Sequence record: NC_073324.1
Strand: one strand, 5' to 3'
DNA: 45,176 bases
Source: Escherichia phage vB_EcoS-22664BS2
Shown here: piece by piece, positions 2,954 through 43,477 of the stretch
Position numbering within the stretch: position 1 is the first letter of the stretch
Layout of the letters: each line of letters begins with the position of its first letter
Notes under the pieces: generated by a model
Seen by the model: the letters and a program-made list of their open reading frames with translations, nothing else
What the model was told of the DNA's origin: nothing
The model's database searches: none
Made by a program: the position numbers and the translations under genes

Positions 2954-3123
2954 TGTCCAGTGACATCAACGCAGCAATCGAAGAGGCAATCTGGCGACGC
3001 TACAACGGCGAGCAGCAACGGCACTTCTGCCTGGTGCAACGCGGCAACATGGTCGCCGTAGTGCAGGACCGCGATAACAAATATCCGAATGCGATGTGGA
3101 CGACGAGGAATTTCTTAGGATGA
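2953..3123 (+). CDS. hypothetical protein
   Basis: ATG at codon 6 of track ORF 2938..3123. Confidence 0.45.
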   Translation: MSSDINAAIEEAIWRRYNGEQQRHFCLVQRGNMVAVVQDRDNKYPNAMWTTRNFLG

Positions 3124-3356
3124 TTACCAGCATTCCTAACCTTATTAAAGAATTTGGCACGATGGCGGAGACGTGCCGACAAACAGGCCTCAACGAAATG
3201 ACGATTGCGAAGTACAGCAAAGACGTGAAATGCGAGCGCCATGTAATTTATAATAACCGCCTTATGACGCACGTTAAGACAAGCCCGGTGTTATTCACGC
3301 GCCGTGGTATCACTAAAACAGAGCAACGCATTGCGCGAGAGGAGAGCGGGGAATGA
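3120..3356 (+). CDS. hypothetical protein
   Basis: ATG at codon 9 of track ORF 3096..3356, ATGA overlap with upstream stop. Confidence 0.45.
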   Translation: MITSIPNLIKEFGTMAETCRQTGLNEMTIAKYSKDVKCERHVIYNNRLMTHVKTSPVLFTRRGITKTEQRIAREESGE

Positions 3357-7063: not shown

Positions 7064-7085
7064 GACCAACAACAGAGATAAAATT

Positions 7086-7110
7086 AAGGCCCCATAAGGG
7101 GCCTTTTTAT
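7086..7110. terminator. terminator between portal (+) and a minus-strand small gene
   Basis: GGCCCC-ATAA-GGGGCC hairpin followed by TTTTT; sits between convergent genes. Confidence 0.6.
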
Positions 7111-7392
7111 CTATACAAATGTAAATCCAGTGCTGGTAGCGGTGTAACTGGTGGCGCCGTTTTTCGTTTCGGGCCAACAGATATACGAGCGCCCGCGATA
7201 CTCTACCCACCAAAGTTCCACATCGGAGTCCCCGTTAGGTCTAGTCAACCACCCGTGGTGTAGCCAATACTTGCGCCCTATTTTAAATATATCTTCTTCA
7301 CTGGAAGTCCACTCCTGAGCGACACACTCTACCTGAACGCTATCAACACATACACATGTAAGATATAAATCACTGTTTGAATATTTAGCCAT
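7111..7392 (-). CDS. hypothetical protein (93 aa), moron-like insert in head module
   Basis: Internal ATG at codon 37 of track ORF; own promoter and RBS; opposite orientation to flanking structural genes. Confidence 0.5.
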   Translation of the reverse strand: MAKYSNSDLYLTCVCVDSVQVECVAQEWTSSEEDIFKIGRKYWLHHGWLTRPNGDSDVELWWVEYRGRSYICWPETKNGATSYTATSTGFTFV

Positions 7393-7427
7393 TTCTAAAT
7401 TCCTTATCTCTCGTTTCGATGCAATGA

Positions 7428-7456
7428 ATAGTACCCTATTATGTTGGTGTCTGCAA
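7428..7456 (-). promoter_or_regulatory. sigma70-like promoter (TTGCAG-N17-TACTAT) for 7111..7392
   Basis: Read on minus strand; member of the conserved promoter family. Confidence 0.5.
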
Positions 7457-8547: not shown

Positions 8548-9006
8548 ATGGGCTTTTTCAAAGTAACTGATGTACCTTCGCGTCGCGTAGTCCAGTACGC
8601 CCGCGTGTCTGGCTCTGGTGAGAACGTGGTGTTTATTGAAGACGAAAGTGTACTTGGTACACCAGTAGACGATATGCCGTTTGCAGACAAGACTGGCATT
8701 GCGCTACCAGCGGCGGGTATGCTTTATGAAATCCCGTATCTGGCTGACGCAGGCGATGTGTATTTCTCTGTACAACCGCAGGACGTTGAACTGGCAGATG
8801 GCAGCGCAACTATCACTGTCGAAGTTAAGGCGGGTAAATCCCCCTATGCACTGGCCTGGTACAAAGACGGCAAGGAAGTAGTAAACGCGCCCGAAGAGGC
8901 TTTGTCTCTGACGGTTAACGCGGTCGGTGAATACTTCGTTAAAGTTACCGATGCTGATGGTGTAGAGGCTGTCAGTAAAGCTGCGAAGGTCACTAAGCCC
9001 GAATGA
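8548..9006 (+). CDS. Ig-like domain protein (possible head decoration protein)
   Basis: C-terminal I-set-like segment ALAWYKDGKEV...GEYFVKVTDADG. Confidence 0.45.
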   Translation: MGFFKVTDVPSRRVVQYARVSGSGENVVFIEDESVLGTPVDDMPFADKTGIALPAAGMLYEIPYLADAGDVYFSVQPQDVELADGSATITVEVKAGKSPYALAWYKDGKEVVNAPEEALSLTVNAVGEYFVKVTDADGVEAVSKAAKVTKPE

Positions 9007-9007
9007 T

Positions 9008-9036
9008 AAAAGGCCCCATTAAGGGGCCTTAGTTTT
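9008..9036. terminator. bidirectional terminator between convergent genes
   Basis: AAAGGCCCC...GGGGCCTT hairpin with T/A runs on both sides. Confidence 0.6.
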
Positions 9037-9239
9037 CAACGGAATCTTGTGTTTAAATCCTGCTCGTGGACGACCCTCAGAACAGTGTCATAATCCCCGT
9101 ATCTTCCAGGTTCAAATATATCTAATGCCTTGTAAGCAGACATTGCGTCAGGGAAAACCTGCAGAACCTTTTTAACACGGCACAAGTCACCGTCGAACTC
9201 TTCATCGAACTCTTGAACTACTTCGCAAATTGCATACAT
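9036..9239 (-). CDS. hypothetical protein (67 aa), moron-like
   Basis: ORF track; own promoter, GGAGGTG RBS and terminator. Confidence 0.5.
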   Translation of the reverse strand: MYAICEVVQEFDEEFDGDLCRVKKVLQVFPDAMSAYKALDIFEPGRYGDYDTVLRVVHEQDLNTRFR

Positions 9240-9266
9240 TTTTCACCTCCTGCTTAAGTTAACTGA

Positions 9267-9295
9267 ATAGTACCCTATTATATTGGGGTGCGCAA
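9267..9295 (-). promoter_or_regulatory. sigma70-like promoter (TTGCGC-N17-TACTAT) for 9036..9239
   Basis: Conserved promoter family. Confidence 0.5.
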
Positions 9296-9361
9296 ACTAT
9301 TTATTCGACTATTCCAGTTATTCCGCTCAATTGTAAATGTTGGAATAAACTATTCGAATAG

Positions 9362-9390
9362 TTGACTTTTCACTGAAAATGTGCTAAGCT
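9362..9390 (+). promoter_or_regulatory. sigma70-like promoter with extended -10 (TTGACT-N17-TGcTAAGCT) driving ncRNA candidate 1
   Basis: Same promoter architecture repeated at 41851-41879. Confidence 0.5.
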
Positions 9391-9393
9391 CCA

Positions 9394-9597
9394 CCTGAGC
9401 TTGTGAAGTATGAACAAGCGACCGCGGCGCGGGCAGGTAACGGAGCGGGACGTAAGTCCTGAGTGTAGTTACGCTGACGCGTTCGGAAGGGCCATAGTCT
9501 ATTGCTTGTGTAAAAAGTAACTGGTTTACTGAGATTACGCCGTTTCTATGTTTAAATGATAAGGACTAGCGCCCCGCTTTATGGCGGGGCTTTACTT
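9394..9597 (+). ncRNA. candidate structured non-coding RNA, copy 1
   Basis: Promoter upstream and hairpin plus T-run terminator at 9569-9597; first 38 nt identical to 41883-41920, rest aligns with indels. Confidence 0.4.
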
Positions 9598-9614
9598 ATC
9601 GAGAAAGGAGAAAC

Positions 9615-10001
9615 ATGAATCTTAAAGCAACTGTCGTAGCGGGAGCATGTTTCATCATCCTGGCTTACACACACGGCATCTACCAGTACCGCATCGGCTG
9701 GAACGAAGGCCGGGCGAATCTCGTTTCTCAGCAACAGCAGAAAGCACAGGCCGAGATGACTAAGAAAACACAACGGCAGCAGCAGGACGAATCAAAGGCC
9801 GCAGCCGCTGACAACGAAGGCAAGACGAAATCAGAGGTGATCACCCGTGAAGTCGTTAAGTACATTAAAACGCCTGGTCGCAGTGTGTGCGCTTTTGACC
9901 CTGAGCGCGTGCAGCTCAAGTCCCGCGCCGTCGCAAACGCCAACTCCATCCCCGGATACGACGATGATGCAGCCGCCGTGCAAACTGGCAGCGCCAAGTA
10001 G
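9615..10001 (+). CDS. i-spanin (Rz-like)
   Basis: N-terminal TM segment, then Gln/Ala-rich coiled coil; AAGGAG RBS. Confidence 0.6.
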   Translation: MNLKATVVAGACFIILAYTHGIYQYRIGWNEGRANLVSQQQQKAQAEMTKKTQRQQQDESKAAAADNEGKTKSEVITREVVKYIKTPGRSVCAFDPERVQLKSRAVANANSIPGYDDDAAAVQTGSAK

Positions 10002-10110
10002 CGACGCGGACGAGGATTTAGCTATCGACGTTCAGAACGCCGAATGCGTACGGCAACTGAGGCTGAAAGTGTTCATGTTGCAGGATTACGTGAGGAATAT
10101 TCTGGAATAG
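9847..10110 (+). CDS. o-spanin (Rz1-like lipoprotein) in +1 frame overlapping the Rz-like gene
   Basis: Signal peptide with lipobox LSAC, Pro-rich mature region; starts inside the Rz-like ORF and ends beyond it. Confidence 0.55.
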   Translation: MKSLSTLKRLVAVCALLTLSACSSSPAPSQTPTPSPDTTMMQPPCKLAAPSSDADEDLAIDVQNAECVRQLRLKVFMLQDYVRNILE

Positions 10111-10192
10111 TTGCCTTGCATGTTGGAATAATTTATTCTTGACATGTAAATCCGGGTGGCCCGGATTCCAACGTCCAGGGGACATACTGACT

Positions 10193-10894
10193 ATGAATCG
10201 TTTTTTACGTTATCCGTTCCAGGAAGAAGCTGGGGCAGAAGATAAAGCTGGTGGCGGTGACGCTCCTAAAATGTACACAGCCGAAGAAGTGCAGGCGCTA
10301 ATTGAGAAAGAAGTCGCCGGGCTTAAGGCCAATCAGGAAGCATTACTGGCGGAGAAGAAAGAAGCCGCTCGTAAAGCAAGAGAGGCCGAAGAAGAACGGC
10401 AGCGCGCACACCAGGAGGCGTTAAAAGCCGCCGGTAAGATGGACGAGTTCGAAAAGACGATTCGTAGCCAGTATGACCCGGTGTTAGCCGAGAAAGACGG
10501 TCGCATCTCCAGAATGGCAGAGCGTATCCTCGGCAGCGAACGTAAAGCGGTGCTAGGCTCTTTCGCGGGTGACTTTATTACCCCAGAAGCAGTGGACATT
10601 CTTGCGCCGTTCGTTAAGACTGAGTTCGAAGGCGATGATGTGGTTACTAAGTTTGTTGGTGCAGACGGTAACGTAATCACGACTGACCCGGAACAGTTCC
10701 GCAAATACCTGCGCGAACACAAGGCGTTTTCGCATTTGATCAAAGCAAATGCAGCTTCCGGCGGCGGGGCTTCCGGTAGCAAAGGCGGCGGGGCCGCACC
10801 AGCGTTTAAAGACATGAGTGAAGCAGAGCGTTTAGCCCTGTATAAATCGAACCCTGCCGAATTTGAACGGCAACTTAAAGCCCTGAGGAAATAA
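10193..10894 (+). CDS. scaffolding protein (putative)
   Basis: ATG at codon 19 of track ORF; charged coiled-coil-rich protein directly upstream of major capsid protein. Confidence 0.65.
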   Translation: MNRFLRYPFQEEAGAEDKAGGGDAPKMYTAEEVQALIEKEVAGLKANQEALLAEKKEAARKAREAEEERQRAHQEALKAAGKMDEFEKTIRSQYDPVLAEKDGRISRMAERILGSERKAVLGSFAGDFITPEAVDILAPFVKTEFEGDDVVTKFVGADGNVITTDPEQFRKYLREHKAFSHLIKANAASGGGASGSKGGGAAPAFKDMSEAERLALYKSNPAEFERQLKALRK

Positions 10895-10896
10895 TA

Positions 10897-11946
10897 ATGG
10901 CAATTACCACTATCGGCGATATCGTAACTGGCAACATCCCGGTCCTGGCGTCTTATATGACCGAGGACCCGGTAGAAAAAACCGCGTTCTTCCAGTCTGG
11001 TATTCTGACCCCGACCCCATACGCCGCCGAGATTGCCCGCGGCCCGTCCAACGTCGCTAATATTCCTTTCTGGAAAGCGATTGATACCTCTATCGAGCCG
11101 AACTACTCGAACGACGTATACCAGGACATCGCCACCCCGCGTAACGTGCAGACCGGCGAGATGATGGCCCGCGTTGCATACCTGAACGAAGGTTTCGGTC
11201 AGGCGGATTTGACTGTCGAACTGACCAGCCAGAACCCGCTGCAATCCGTAGCGTCCCGTCTGGATAACTTCTGGCAGCGCCAGGCACAACGCCGTCTGAT
11301 TGCTACCGCGCTCGGTCTGTACAACGACAACGTAGCTGCTACCGATGCTTACCACGAGCAGAACGACATGGTTATCGACGTGTCTGCTACTCTGGGCTTC
11401 GATGTGGGCGCGTTCATCGACGCTACCCAGACTATGGGCGATGCTCTGATGGGCAACGGCGGTGAAGTGCTGGGGGCTATCGCGATGCATAGCTTCGTTT
11501 ATGCGCAGGCACGTAAGCAGCAGCTTATCGACTTCATCCGTGACGCGGACAACAACACCATGTTCGCCACCTACCAGGGCTACCGCGTGATTGTTGACGA
11601 CAGCATGACCGTAGTCGGCACTGGCCCGACCCGTAAGTTCATCTCCATCATCTTCGGCAACGGCGCTATCGGTTACGGTGAAGGTTCTCCGTCCAACCCG
11701 CTGGAATACGAGCGCGAAGCGTCCCGCGGCAACGGCGGCGGCGTTGAAACCCTGTGGACCCGTAAGACCTGGTTGCTACATCCGTTTGGTTACAGCTTCA
11801 CCAGCGCAGTAATCACCGGTAACGGCACCGAGACTGTCGCACGTTCTGCTTCCTGGCAGGACCTGGCGAACGCCTCTAACTGGAGCCGTGTTGTTGACCG
11901 TAAGCACGTACCGATTGCCTTCCTGGTAACTGGTGTCGGTGCTTAA
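10897..11946 (+). CDS. major capsid protein
   Basis: 349 aa, follows scaffold, followed by a terminator/attenuator. Confidence 0.85.
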   Translation: MAITTIGDIVTGNIPVLASYMTEDPVEKTAFFQSGILTPTPYAAEIARGPSNVANIPFWKAIDTSIEPNYSNDVYQDIATPRNVQTGEMMARVAYLNEGFGQADLTVELTSQNPLQSVASRLDNFWQRQAQRRLIATALGLYNDNVAATDAYHEQNDMVIDVSATLGFDVGAFIDATQTMGDALMGNGGEVLGAIAMHSFVYAQARKQQLIDFIRDADNNTMFATYQGYRVIVDDSMTVVGTGPTRKFISIIFGNGAIGYGEGSPSNPLEYEREASRGNGGGVETLWTRKTWLLHPFGYSFTSAVITGNGTETVARSASWQDLANASNWSRVVDRKHVPIAFLVTGVGA

Positions 11947-35454: not shown

Positions 35455-35483
35455 ACTATAATAGCTAACTATTCAGGTGTCAA
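35455..35483 (-). promoter_or_regulatory. sigma70-like promoter (TTGACA-N17-TATAGT)
   Basis: Consensus -35, 17-nt spacer. Confidence 0.5.
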
Positions 35484-38353: not shown

Positions 38354-38569
38354 ATGCAACCATCTGAACTAGGTATCCGTGTAGAACAACGCCGTAAAGA
38401 ACTCGGCATCTCCCAGCGCCGTTTGGCGGCCCTGACCGGCGTTTCCCAGGGCGCGATTAACCAACTGGCACTTGGAGTAACTCAGGACGTCCGCCCGGCA
38501 ACGCTGTTCAAACTGGCGGAAGTTCTGGAAGTAGACGCCAAGTGGCTGGCGTTAGGTGAAGGGGCTTAA
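38354..38569 (+). CDS. XRE-family HTH transcriptional regulator (Cro/CI-like)
   Basis: ELGISQRRLAALTGVSQGAINQL helix-turn-helix signature. Confidence 0.65.
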   Translation: MQPSELGIRVEQRRKELGISQRRLAALTGVSQGAINQLALGVTQDVRPATLFKLAEVLEVDAKWLALGEGA

Positions 38570-41330: not shown

Positions 41331-41564
41331 CTAGCGTTGGGGTTTCTTTTGCCTACGTGCCGCATTAATCCACTCTCCTTCGCTCTGGTAGAAACTGCAA
41401 TCAAGAATATCCTCTATAGAAAATTTAACTATTTTAGTGGGTCCACAAAAGTTATAAGGGAAAAGTTCTACATAACACCCATCGTCGGTTATATTCGACG
41501 CAATCTTGAAATAATATTTAATGCTGTCGTCTTCACGGAAGCTACAACCCATACGCCCAATCAT
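41331..41564 (-). CDS. hypothetical protein
   Basis: ORF track. Confidence 0.4.
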   Translation of the reverse strand: MIGRMGCSFREDDSIKYYFKIASNITDDGCYVELFPYNFCGPTKIVKFSIEDILDCSFYQSEGEWINAARRQKKPQR

Positions 41565-41749
41565 TTCACGTTCTCCTTAATCCACGCTTCAACTTTATTA
41601 CGGTCAAATGTTCCTGGTAAACGGCGCCCCATAACTTTAATACAGCAGTCAGGGAATTTACCACTGCGTAGCCAGTTATTAATTGTCTGACGTGTTACCC
41701 CGATACGTTCTGCTACTTCATTCTGGGTCATGTAATGTTGCATTTTCAT
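41561..41749 (-). CDS. small HTH DNA-binding protein (AlpA/excisionase-like)
   Basis: ATG at codon 19 of track ORF with AGGAGA RBS; MTQNEVAERIGVTRQTINNW HTH. Confidence 0.5.
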   Translation of the reverse strand: MKMQHYMTQNEVAERIGVTRQTINNWLRSGKFPDCCIKVMGRRLPGTFDRNKVEAWIKENVK

Positions 41750-41773
41750 ATCTCCTGTTTGTTTGGTGAAAAC

Positions 41774-41803
41774 GAGTATAGGATAGCGGGAATGTAAAAG
41801 CAA
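41774..41803 (-). promoter_or_regulatory. putative promoter (TTGCTT-N18-TATACT) for the HTH gene
   Basis: Divergent from the ncRNA-2 promoter. Confidence 0.4.
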
Positions 41804-42147: not shown

Positions 42148-42176
42148 TTGCACACCCCAACATAATAGGATACTAT
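42148..42176 (+). promoter_or_regulatory. sigma70-like promoter (TTGCAC-N17-TACTAT) for early operon
   Basis: Conserved promoter family; leader ATCGAAACGAGACAGAGGAG. Confidence 0.55.
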
Positions 42177-42210
42177 TCACTTATCGAAACGAGACAGAGG
42201 AGTGAGGGTT

Positions 42211-43418: not shown

Positions 43419-43447
43419 TTGCACGCTGAGATGGAATAGGCTACTAT
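43419..43447 (+). promoter_or_regulatory. sigma70-like promoter (TTGCAC-N17-TACTAT)
   Basis: Conserved promoter family; leader ACGAGAGGAGAGACAGAG. Confidence 0.5.
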
Positions 43448-43477
43448 TCATTCACACAAACGAGAGGAGAGACAGAG

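Follow-up and report, generated by a model that had tools for sequence, protein, structure and literature searches.

The window considered here, 45,176 nucleotides of DNA from Escherichia phage vB_EcoS-22664BS2 (sequence record NC_073324.1), contains a perfect 16-bp palindrome set against the -35 element of the promoter of a structured RNA, RNA-1, as well as a short motif that is found both beside this palindrome and upstream of the scaffold gene. The original prediction took palindrome and motif to be sites for a regulator that links RNA-1 expression to the late structural operon. Such a link is plausible, but it rests on arrays of GGAATA/TATTCC units at the two promoters and not on the palindrome. 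The explanation we favour, which we hold to be probable, if only just, on comparative sequence evidence, is that the palindrome is a lineage-specific by-product, and that the arrays would be operators for one oligomeric phage protein co-regulating both promoters, the best candidate being a NinH-like protein. All sequences reported in the original prediction were found in the window, which is from a Kagunavirus-type coliphage of the subfamily Guernseyvirinae; its region 9000-10200 shares 96.8% identity with Escherichia phage Bas76 and with other Kagunavirus phages. The homologous promoter was gathered from 82 loci, amounting to 48 distinct sequences, and complete genomes were compared as well.

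We denote the promoter of RNA-1 and the spanin genes P_RNA and that of the scaffold and major capsid genes P_scaf. The motif common to the two loci, TGTTGGAATAA, does occur at 9338-9348 and 10121-10131, but the true shared run is 12 nt long (ATGTTGGAATAA), with TATTC following two bases on at both sites. It is a conserved, non-random motif, as had been proposed, and its conservation extends to relatives. Upstream of P_RNA the conserved layout is TTATTCCA(G/A)TTATTCC, 15-16 variable A+T-rich bases, (T)GGAATA-N3-TATTC, a fixed gap of 5 nt and then the -35. In the window this comprises a direct repeat, U1+U2 (TATTCC-agt-TATTCC, 9310-9324, + strand, about -87 to -73 of P_RNA), which is invariant in representatives of Kagunavirus, Jerseyvirus, Cornellvirus and Enterobacter phage phiEap-2, and a dyad, U3-U4 (GGAATA-aac-TATTC(g), 9342-9356, centred at about -48), whose GAATA-N3-TATTC cores are invariant across lineages and whose distance from the -35 is 5 nt in all four. 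At P_scaf, the units GGAATATTCTGGAATAG (10094-10110) abut the -35 and overlap the end of the o-spanin gene, while a second copy of the dyad, GGAATA-att-TATTCT (GGAATAATTTATTCT, 10125-10139), lies in the spacer, its right arm being the -10 TATTCT. The units are about 8 bp long (TGGAATAA / TTATTCCA) and start at 0, 9, 32 and 41 at site 1 and at 0, 10, 31 and 40 at site 2, i.e. with a spacing of 9-10 bp within pairs and about 31 bp between pairs, which places them on one face of the helix.

Across Kagunavirus, Jerseyvirus, Cornellvirus and phiEap-2, all 24 unit columns between U1 and the -35 are invariant, as opposed to 10 of the 30 other columns (Fisher p ~1e-7), although the sequences that tested the conservation of the units had in part also served to define them, a point that counts against our interpretation. 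The dyad GAATA-N3-TATT[CA] is observed twice in the window where 0.09-0.12 occurrences are expected (P(>=2) = 0.003), and the 43-kb genome of Salmonella phage SE2 also contains exactly two, at the same two promoters. Clusters of at least three GGAATA/TATTCC units within 60 bp number two in the window and none in 300 simulated windows, and in both the window and SE2 they are confined to these sites. The dyad becomes a perfect palindrome of 15-17 bp (TGGAATAAATTATTCCA) in Cornellvirus-type contigs, phiEap-2 and Hafnia phage TS33. The region is rearranged in TS33, where the dyad and two direct GGAATAA units are still present upstream of a new -35, and GGAATAG+TTGCCT is retained even where an inserted gene parts the units from the spanin genes (SE1, Cornellvirus-type). 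The GGAATA-N3-TATTC dyad thus keeps its symmetry in homologous loci and recurs at two promoters, and can be regarded as a putative binding site. Over the whole phiEap-2 genome, GGAATA/TATTCC hexamers occur at roughly double the expected number (43 vs 20).

The second locus was rightly identified as the promoter region of the scaffold/major-capsid operon. Its -35 is TTGCCT (10111-10116, + strand), replaced in distant relatives by TTGCAT, TTGCTT, TTGCAA or TTGTTA, always 17 nt from the -10, and its -10 is TATTCT (10134-10139, + strand), which in distant relatives reads TATTCT or TATATT; since the true promoter is TTGCCT-17-TATTCT, the shared motif sits in the P_scaf spacer and -10. At a distance of 12-14 nt downstream of these elements there is a conserved hairpin at the 5' end of the scaffold mRNA (10149-10167, + strand), whose flanks change in a compensatory manner (AAT/ATT to ACA/TGT), and we infer a transcription start at about 10146. 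The hairpin is kept even where the scaffold protein is only 55-56% identical. A TTGACA at 10139-10144 was rejected as the -35 of P_scaf: it has no usable -10, reads TTGTTA in Jerseyvirus, and falls at about -7 to -2, with the hairpin downstream. A natural experiment that favours our interpretation is offered by Pantoea phage AH01 and by L089 and L096, which are metagenomic relatives: all of them retain both the -35 and the -10 of P_scaf and are devoid of the GGAATA units. P_RNA, likewise, is a sigma-70-type promoter next to the palindrome (9362-9390), as had been predicted, and across three lineages it follows T(T/A/G)GACT-N17-TGnTAnnCT. Its -35 (TTGACT, 9362-9367, + strand) reads TTGACT, TAGACT or TGGACT in relatives and is separated by a fixed 17-nt spacer from an extended -10 (TGcTAAGCT, 9382-9390, + strand), in which TG, T-12, A-11 and T-7 are invariant; the -35, the spacer length and these bases are retained in representatives of Kagunavirus, Jerseyvirus, Cornellvirus and phiEap-2. 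The GenBank record of phage fBC-Eco01 annotates P_RNA as a predicted host promoter. A simple consensus scanner misses it because its -10 matches at only 3/6 positions.

One may also consider an explanation that does without a dedicated regulator, in which the repeats are intrinsic to the promoters (UP-like or curved A+T-rich DNA, and -10-like TATTCT) and the likeness of the two sites stems from duplication or conversion, or from recombination linkers. There is something to be said for it: TATTCT is itself the -10 of P_scaf and persists in relatives that have no arrays, an A-tract (AAAAAG) is present just upstream of the -35 in Jerseyvirus and Cornellvirus, site 1 looks as if two copies of site 2 had been joined in tandem (...ATGTTGGAATAAnnTATTC followed by GAATAGTTGnCT...), both sites are at boundaries with variable gene insertions, and the block has moved between genera. 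Nevertheless we consider it unlikely, since invariance is confined to the unit cores and the intervening A+T-rich positions are free to vary, which one would not expect of an effect of composition or curvature. The units also persist after the rearrangement in TS33, occur beside a terminator in phiEap-2, and vanish together with two phage genes (those for the NinH-like and DUF2737 proteins, see below) while the -35 and -10 stay; to our knowledge they do not match the UP-element consensus.

The palindrome, in contrast to the dyad, does not keep its symmetry. AACTATTCGAATAGTT is indeed perfect over 16 bp (9348-9363), and with its last two bases it overlaps the start of TTGACT (9362-9367); GAATAGTTG, which overlaps it, is present at 9356-9364 and again at 10105-10113 (one base away from where it had been placed) and forms the unit abutting the -35 at both promoters. 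However, the window holds one perfect 16-bp palindrome where 0.73 are expected, and 55% of Markov-simulated windows hold one, so that the palindrome alone is not significant. Over the palindrome region Kagunavirus-type promoters read TATTCGAATAGTTGACT, those of Jerseyvirus TATTCAAAAAGTAGACT (a region type found in 268 GenBank records), and those of Cornellvirus and phiEap-2 TATTC(C/A)AAAAGTGGACT; symmetric pairs at the homologous promoter accordingly number 8/8 in the window type, 3/8 in Jerseyvirus and 4/8 in Cornellvirus and phiEap-2. Within the Kagunavirus type, 35 of 40 distinct promoters have the canonical bases at the scored palindrome positions (one of them, L003, differs in the unscored last two bases), and among the 40 distinct sequences there are six variants, every one of which breaks the symmetry and none of which is compensated. 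Even the copy in S100, a Jerseyvirus with an imported Kagunavirus-type block, is imperfect. The palindrome's proposed role as a regulator site therefore finds no backing either in conservation or in compensatory change at homologous loci: with symmetry lost in Jerseyvirus, Cornellvirus and phiEap-2, and with variants that do not compensate, it is not a conserved element. It consists of the conserved unit U4 (TATTC) joined to a GAATAG unit that abuts the -35 of P_RNA in an arrangement specific to the Kagunavirus type. We suggest that it arises where the former meets the latter, and that the Kagunavirus GAATAG may copy the arrangement of the scaffold promoter, in which a unit abuts the -35.

The arms of the palindrome had also been related to an AATAG/CTATT dyad at the -10 of other promoters. 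This promoter motif is real, but the relation of the palindrome to it is superficial, as the arms are arranged the other way round. If up to three mismatches are allowed, GAATAGTNNNCTATTAT has 21 matches in the window, where 3.05 are expected, and two papers on Kagunavirus genomes list the same motif among their "phage promoter" predictions by PHIRE (PMC9825357; PMC7203180 Table S4). The published form, tgAATAGTa-ccTATTat-T, has the heptamer GAATAGT / ACTATTC in common with the palindrome arms, and both are Kagunavirus-type-specific; in PHIRE promoters, however, AATAG-N4-CTATT makes up the spacer and -10 of early and moron promoters, as opposed to the CTATT-cg-AATAG of the palindrome. When the palindrome is compared with the PHIRE pattern (GAATAGT-N3-CTATTAT over the -10), the best overlap, GAATAGTTGACTTTTCA, has three mismatches and reversed arms. 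One PHIRE copy, 70 bp to the left of the palindrome and the source of the comparison, is a leftward promoter (GAATAGTaccCTATTAT...GGGGTGCGCAA, 9264-9296, - strand) that drives a 67-amino-acid gene at 9036-9239. Five of the seven other complete genomes scanned (SE2, FSL SP-031, SE1, AH01 and TS33) are devoid of the PHIRE family, several of them keeping GGAATA repeats; there is a single loose match in phiEap-2, and in S100 one copy that lies within the block it imported. The resemblance of the palindrome arms to this family is confined to the Kagunavirus lineage. Apart from this, we observed that a Kagunavirus-specific family of about 30 nt, TTGCACACCCCAAyATAATAGGGTACTATTCA, heads small, variable, often leftward "moron-like" genes, with copies at 7426, 9265, 18817, 42162-42178 and 43433-43449, and also at 35458, 38264 and 38308; a related form, TTGACA-N3-GAATAGT-N3-CTATTATAGT, is present at the early divergent region.

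These observations bear on a further possibility, namely that the palindrome is an operator at the -35 for a dimeric helix-turn-helix regulator specific to Kagunavirus, either 434-Cro-like or one that recognises the GAATAGT promoter arms. The palindrome is perfect and abuts the -35, most distinct Kagunavirus-type promoters have it in canonical form, GAATAGT is enriched in the window (14 copies vs 5.5 expected), palindrome and GAATAGT promoter family are restricted to the same phage type, and the phage encodes a helix-turn-helix protein of 434-Cro type. Little can be read from conservation within the lineage, however, because the whole region is 95-99% identical among carriers, and what we found of chance expectation, of loss in the other three lineages and of six uncompensated variants all goes the other way. 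S100, moreover, has the imported block with its imperfect palindrome and no other GAATAGT-type promoter, and since the half-sites are opposite in arrangement to, and differently spaced from, AATAG-N4-CTATT, the same dimer geometry cannot apply to both. We therefore regard such an operator as improbable.

Returning to the arrays as operators, the functional element would be the helically phased set of units, each array including a 13-15-bp GGAATA-N3-TATTC dyad. Array 1 would occupy about -88 to -40 of P_RNA, which makes the structured leader and the spanin mRNA, an upstream position that fits activation or DNA bending, whereas array 2 would occupy about -52 to -36 and about -21 to -7 of P_scaf, and its overlap with the core promoter fits occlusion. 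Candidates for the binding protein were sought by comparing eight complete genomes (the window, SE2, FSL SP-031, phiEap-2, TS33, SE1, AH01 and VLCpiS11a). Arrays are present in the window, SE2, FSL SP-031, phiEap-2 and TS33, and in SE1 at the scaffold promoter only, but not in Pantoea phage AH01 or Klebsiella phage VLCpiS11a. When open reading frames of at least 35 amino acids from all six frames of the window were considered, just two were found in all five other array-bearing genomes and in neither array-less genome: a DUF2737 protein of 57 amino acids (2012-2185) and the NinH-like protein, a Fis-like helix-turn-helix protein and candidate array binder (3120-3356, + strand; open reading frame from 3096/3120), whose presence matches that of the arrays in 8/8 genomes.

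The open reading frame at 3120-3356 is, by sequence comparison, a member of the NinH family: it matches lambda NinH by BLASTP with E = 1e-8 over 51 amino acids and has invariant columns in common with it in an alignment, and PF06322 (Phage_NinH) is the precomputed family for some of its close homologues, one of which is named ninH by UniRef. Between lineages the protein shows 64-70% identity and its helix-turn-helix hardly varies, which would accord with a DNA target that does not vary either. The NinH of lambda, a homodimer resembling Fis, binds DNA and bends it, with a preference for a palindromic motif of 15 bp, G-N13-C (PMC7166090). Here, a G-N13-C core of 15 bp (GGAATAAATTATTCC) is present in the Cornellvirus-type contig L084, phiEap-2 and TS33, but neither in the window (G...G at site 1, G...T at site 2) nor in SE2. 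As for other helix-turn-helix proteins of the phage, the HTH_17 "excisionase-like" protein (41561-41803) is excluded as the binder because its distribution does not match that of the arrays: it was found in Kagunavirus and Jerseyvirus genomes only, and a locus search with it reached only Kagunavirus-type contigs. The 434-Cro-like HTH_3 protein (38354-38569) is present in all eight genomes and is thus uninformative; upstream of its gene there is a conserved early promoter, TTGCA-N17-TATAGT, with no GGAATA dyad.

Several observations weigh against the arrays being operators or against the NinH-like protein as their ligand. The dyad spacing is N4 in one contig (L028/L053), and phiEap-2 (L136) has a third array (11498-11540; AGAATAACTTATTCC, 8 nt, GGAATAACTGGAATAAA) that lies between convergent genes beside a terminator rather than at a promoter. 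The NinH-like protein itself scores below the Pfam cut-off (20.6 vs 29.8 bits), the residues at the DNA-contact arginines of Fis and NinH are not conserved (LNEMTIAKY vs CSRGTVRKY), and its structure model is weak (predicted local distance difference test, pLDDT, 62), with fold matches that are non-significant and of generic helix-turn-helix type; a search of the PDB by sequence gave no match for it. The invariant bases here form G-N11-C, as opposed to the G-N13-C of lambda NinH and Fis, with variation at the outermost positions. In SE1 the NinH-like gene is present but P_RNA has no array, and the co-occurrence of arrays and gene may reflect one or two evolutionary events, i.e. traits shared by a clade. 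The more specific proposal, that the NinH-family protein is a dedicated Guernseyvirinae regulator acting on the arrays and coupling leader/spanin to scaffold/capsid mRNA, is put forward only tentatively, as a possibility about which we are doubtful.

The arrays might instead be bound by a protein of the host that is conserved in enterobacteria, for instance Fis or some other regulator of nucleoid-associated or global type. The complete dyad has the 15 bp, the G-N13-C and the A+T-rich centre that this would call for, and array-bearing phages infect Escherichia, Salmonella, Enterobacter, Raoultella and Hafnia, yet Fis and global regulators are also found in Pantoea and Klebsiella, whose phages AH01 and VLCpiS11a have no arrays, and in the window the outer G/C of the Fis pattern is missing at both sites, so that we judge this very improbable. 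We know of no fit, spacing included, to the host regulator consensus of ArgR, IclR/AllR, RcsB, DeoR, TyrR, CpxR, NanR, Lrp, sigma-54 or sigma-E. Least probable of all is that the arrays are replication-origin iterons or a pac region bound by the helicase-primase or small terminase, with promoter and RNA serving origin activation: two clusters of short, helically phased repeats in both orientations, about 780 bp apart, with an A+T-rich spacer, an adjacent promoter and an unusually conserved RNA region do recall phage P4, whose primase-helicase binds two iteron clusters (ori and crr), but the helicase-primase of the window shares only 27-29% identity with those of other lineages while the units are identical (so that iterons and their binder are not co-conserved), the small terminase is 27-32% identical outside Jerseyvirus, the dyads stand in fixed register to -35 and -10 elements, and AH01 and VLCpiS11a replicate and package without arrays.

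Downstream of P_RNA, transcription probably begins at about 9397, judging from promoter spacing and a 5' hairpin (9399-9419) just downstream, and yields a structured RNA of about 200 nt (RNA-1, 9397-9595, + strand) whose last hairpin (9571-9590) is just upstream of the spanin ribosome-binding site. Compensatory changes are visible in it between lineages; a MAFFT/RNAalifold alignment over all lineages was too poor to resolve more than the 3' hairpin, and a comparison with Rfam gave no match at gathering thresholds and only a weak wcaG match at the E-value threshold (E = 1.4). Since a U-tract after the last hairpin is present in the Kagunavirus type only, this RNA is more aptly called a leader of the spanin genes than an independent non-coding RNA. 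Antitermination of the Q or AlpA type is not supported: no Q-like or AlpA-like match was found among the candidate small proteins scanned, the HTH_17 gene is limited to Kagunavirus and Jerseyvirus genomes, and the downstream U-tract is, again, limited to the Kagunavirus type. An open reading frame of 36 amino acids inside the leader (GenBank records annotate one of 36-38 amino acids) was ruled out as a gene, as it is not conserved in Jerseyvirus. In each of the Guernseyvirinae lineages examined, a structured leader immediately precedes the spanin genes, with promoters that differ (L042 1100-1316; L084 823-1058; L043 420-714).

In the gene order of the window, a Hoc-like head decoration gene (8548-9006) is followed by a bidirectional terminator, the small leftward 67-amino-acid gene (- strand), a gap of 375 bp, the i- and o-spanin genes (9615-10110), the scaffold gene (10193-10894) and the major capsid gene (10897-11946). 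The spanin genes, with their own promoter and leader, thus lie between head genes, about 8 kb from the holin/endolysin cassette (295-1305). The 316-bp stretch 9300-9615 shows 95-99% identity in 177 GenBank phages, above the conservation of its flanks, and together with the adjacent leftward promoter it has moved into S100, a Salmonella phage whose genome outside the imported block is 76% identical to the window and 90% to SE2. Another small leftward gene with its own promoter (7064-7440) lies between the portal and head-morphogenesis genes, where the gap in Bas76 is only 37 nt. Directly after the terminator of the lysis cassette there is a strong sigma-70-like promoter (1420-1452; CTAG-TTGACT-17-TATATT) heading the operon that holds the DUF2737, NinH-like and terminase genes, and its junction "TAG + TTGnCT" is in common with P_RNA and P_scaf.

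Guernseyvirinae are a large group of Escherichia and Salmonella phages that are widely proposed for therapy and biocontrol, and our literature searches found no description of the array sites, nor of structural or lysis gene regulation in this subfamily. In place of a lineage-specific palindrome, the analysis offers a testable map of two promoters, defined repeat units and two candidate genes. Should the NinH-like protein bind the arrays, these would be the first natural target for the NinH family, for whose proteins in general no physiological target is known, and would provide an engineering handle on capsid and spanin expression.

Among known systems, the direct-repeat arrays of Cox, Apl and Xis (P2, 186 and lambda), which are bound by small winged-helix proteins, resemble those described here in their unit spacing of about 10 bp at promoters, and an HTH_17 "excisionase-like" protein is encoded in the window; that protein, however, is limited to Kagunavirus and Jerseyvirus, whereas arrays are also found in Cornellvirus, phiEap-2 and TS33, and the units here have mixed orientations. 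The repressor and Cro operators of lambda and 434, dyads of 14-17 bp over promoters that are occupied as cooperative pairs, are comparable in that here, too, dyads of 13-17 bp lie at promoters, with pairs about three helical turns apart, and in that the window encodes a 434-Cro-like helix-turn-helix protein. They differ in that this protein, 35-48% identical across lineages, is also encoded by array-less genomes, that the upstream array members here are direct and not inverted repeats, and that the phage is virulent, with no immunity region at the array sites. The comparison with Fis sites upstream of rrnB P1 and with lambda NinH (PMC7166090) has differences of its own, namely the G-N11-C of GAATA-N3-TATTC, contact arginines that are not conserved and a dyad that lies over a -10. 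The likeness, on the other hand, consists of several phased sites upstream of a sigma-70 promoter, a binder that in those systems is small, dimeric and DNA-bending, odd-length dyads of about 15 bp and, in these phages, an encoded NinH-family protein that is distributed like the arrays.

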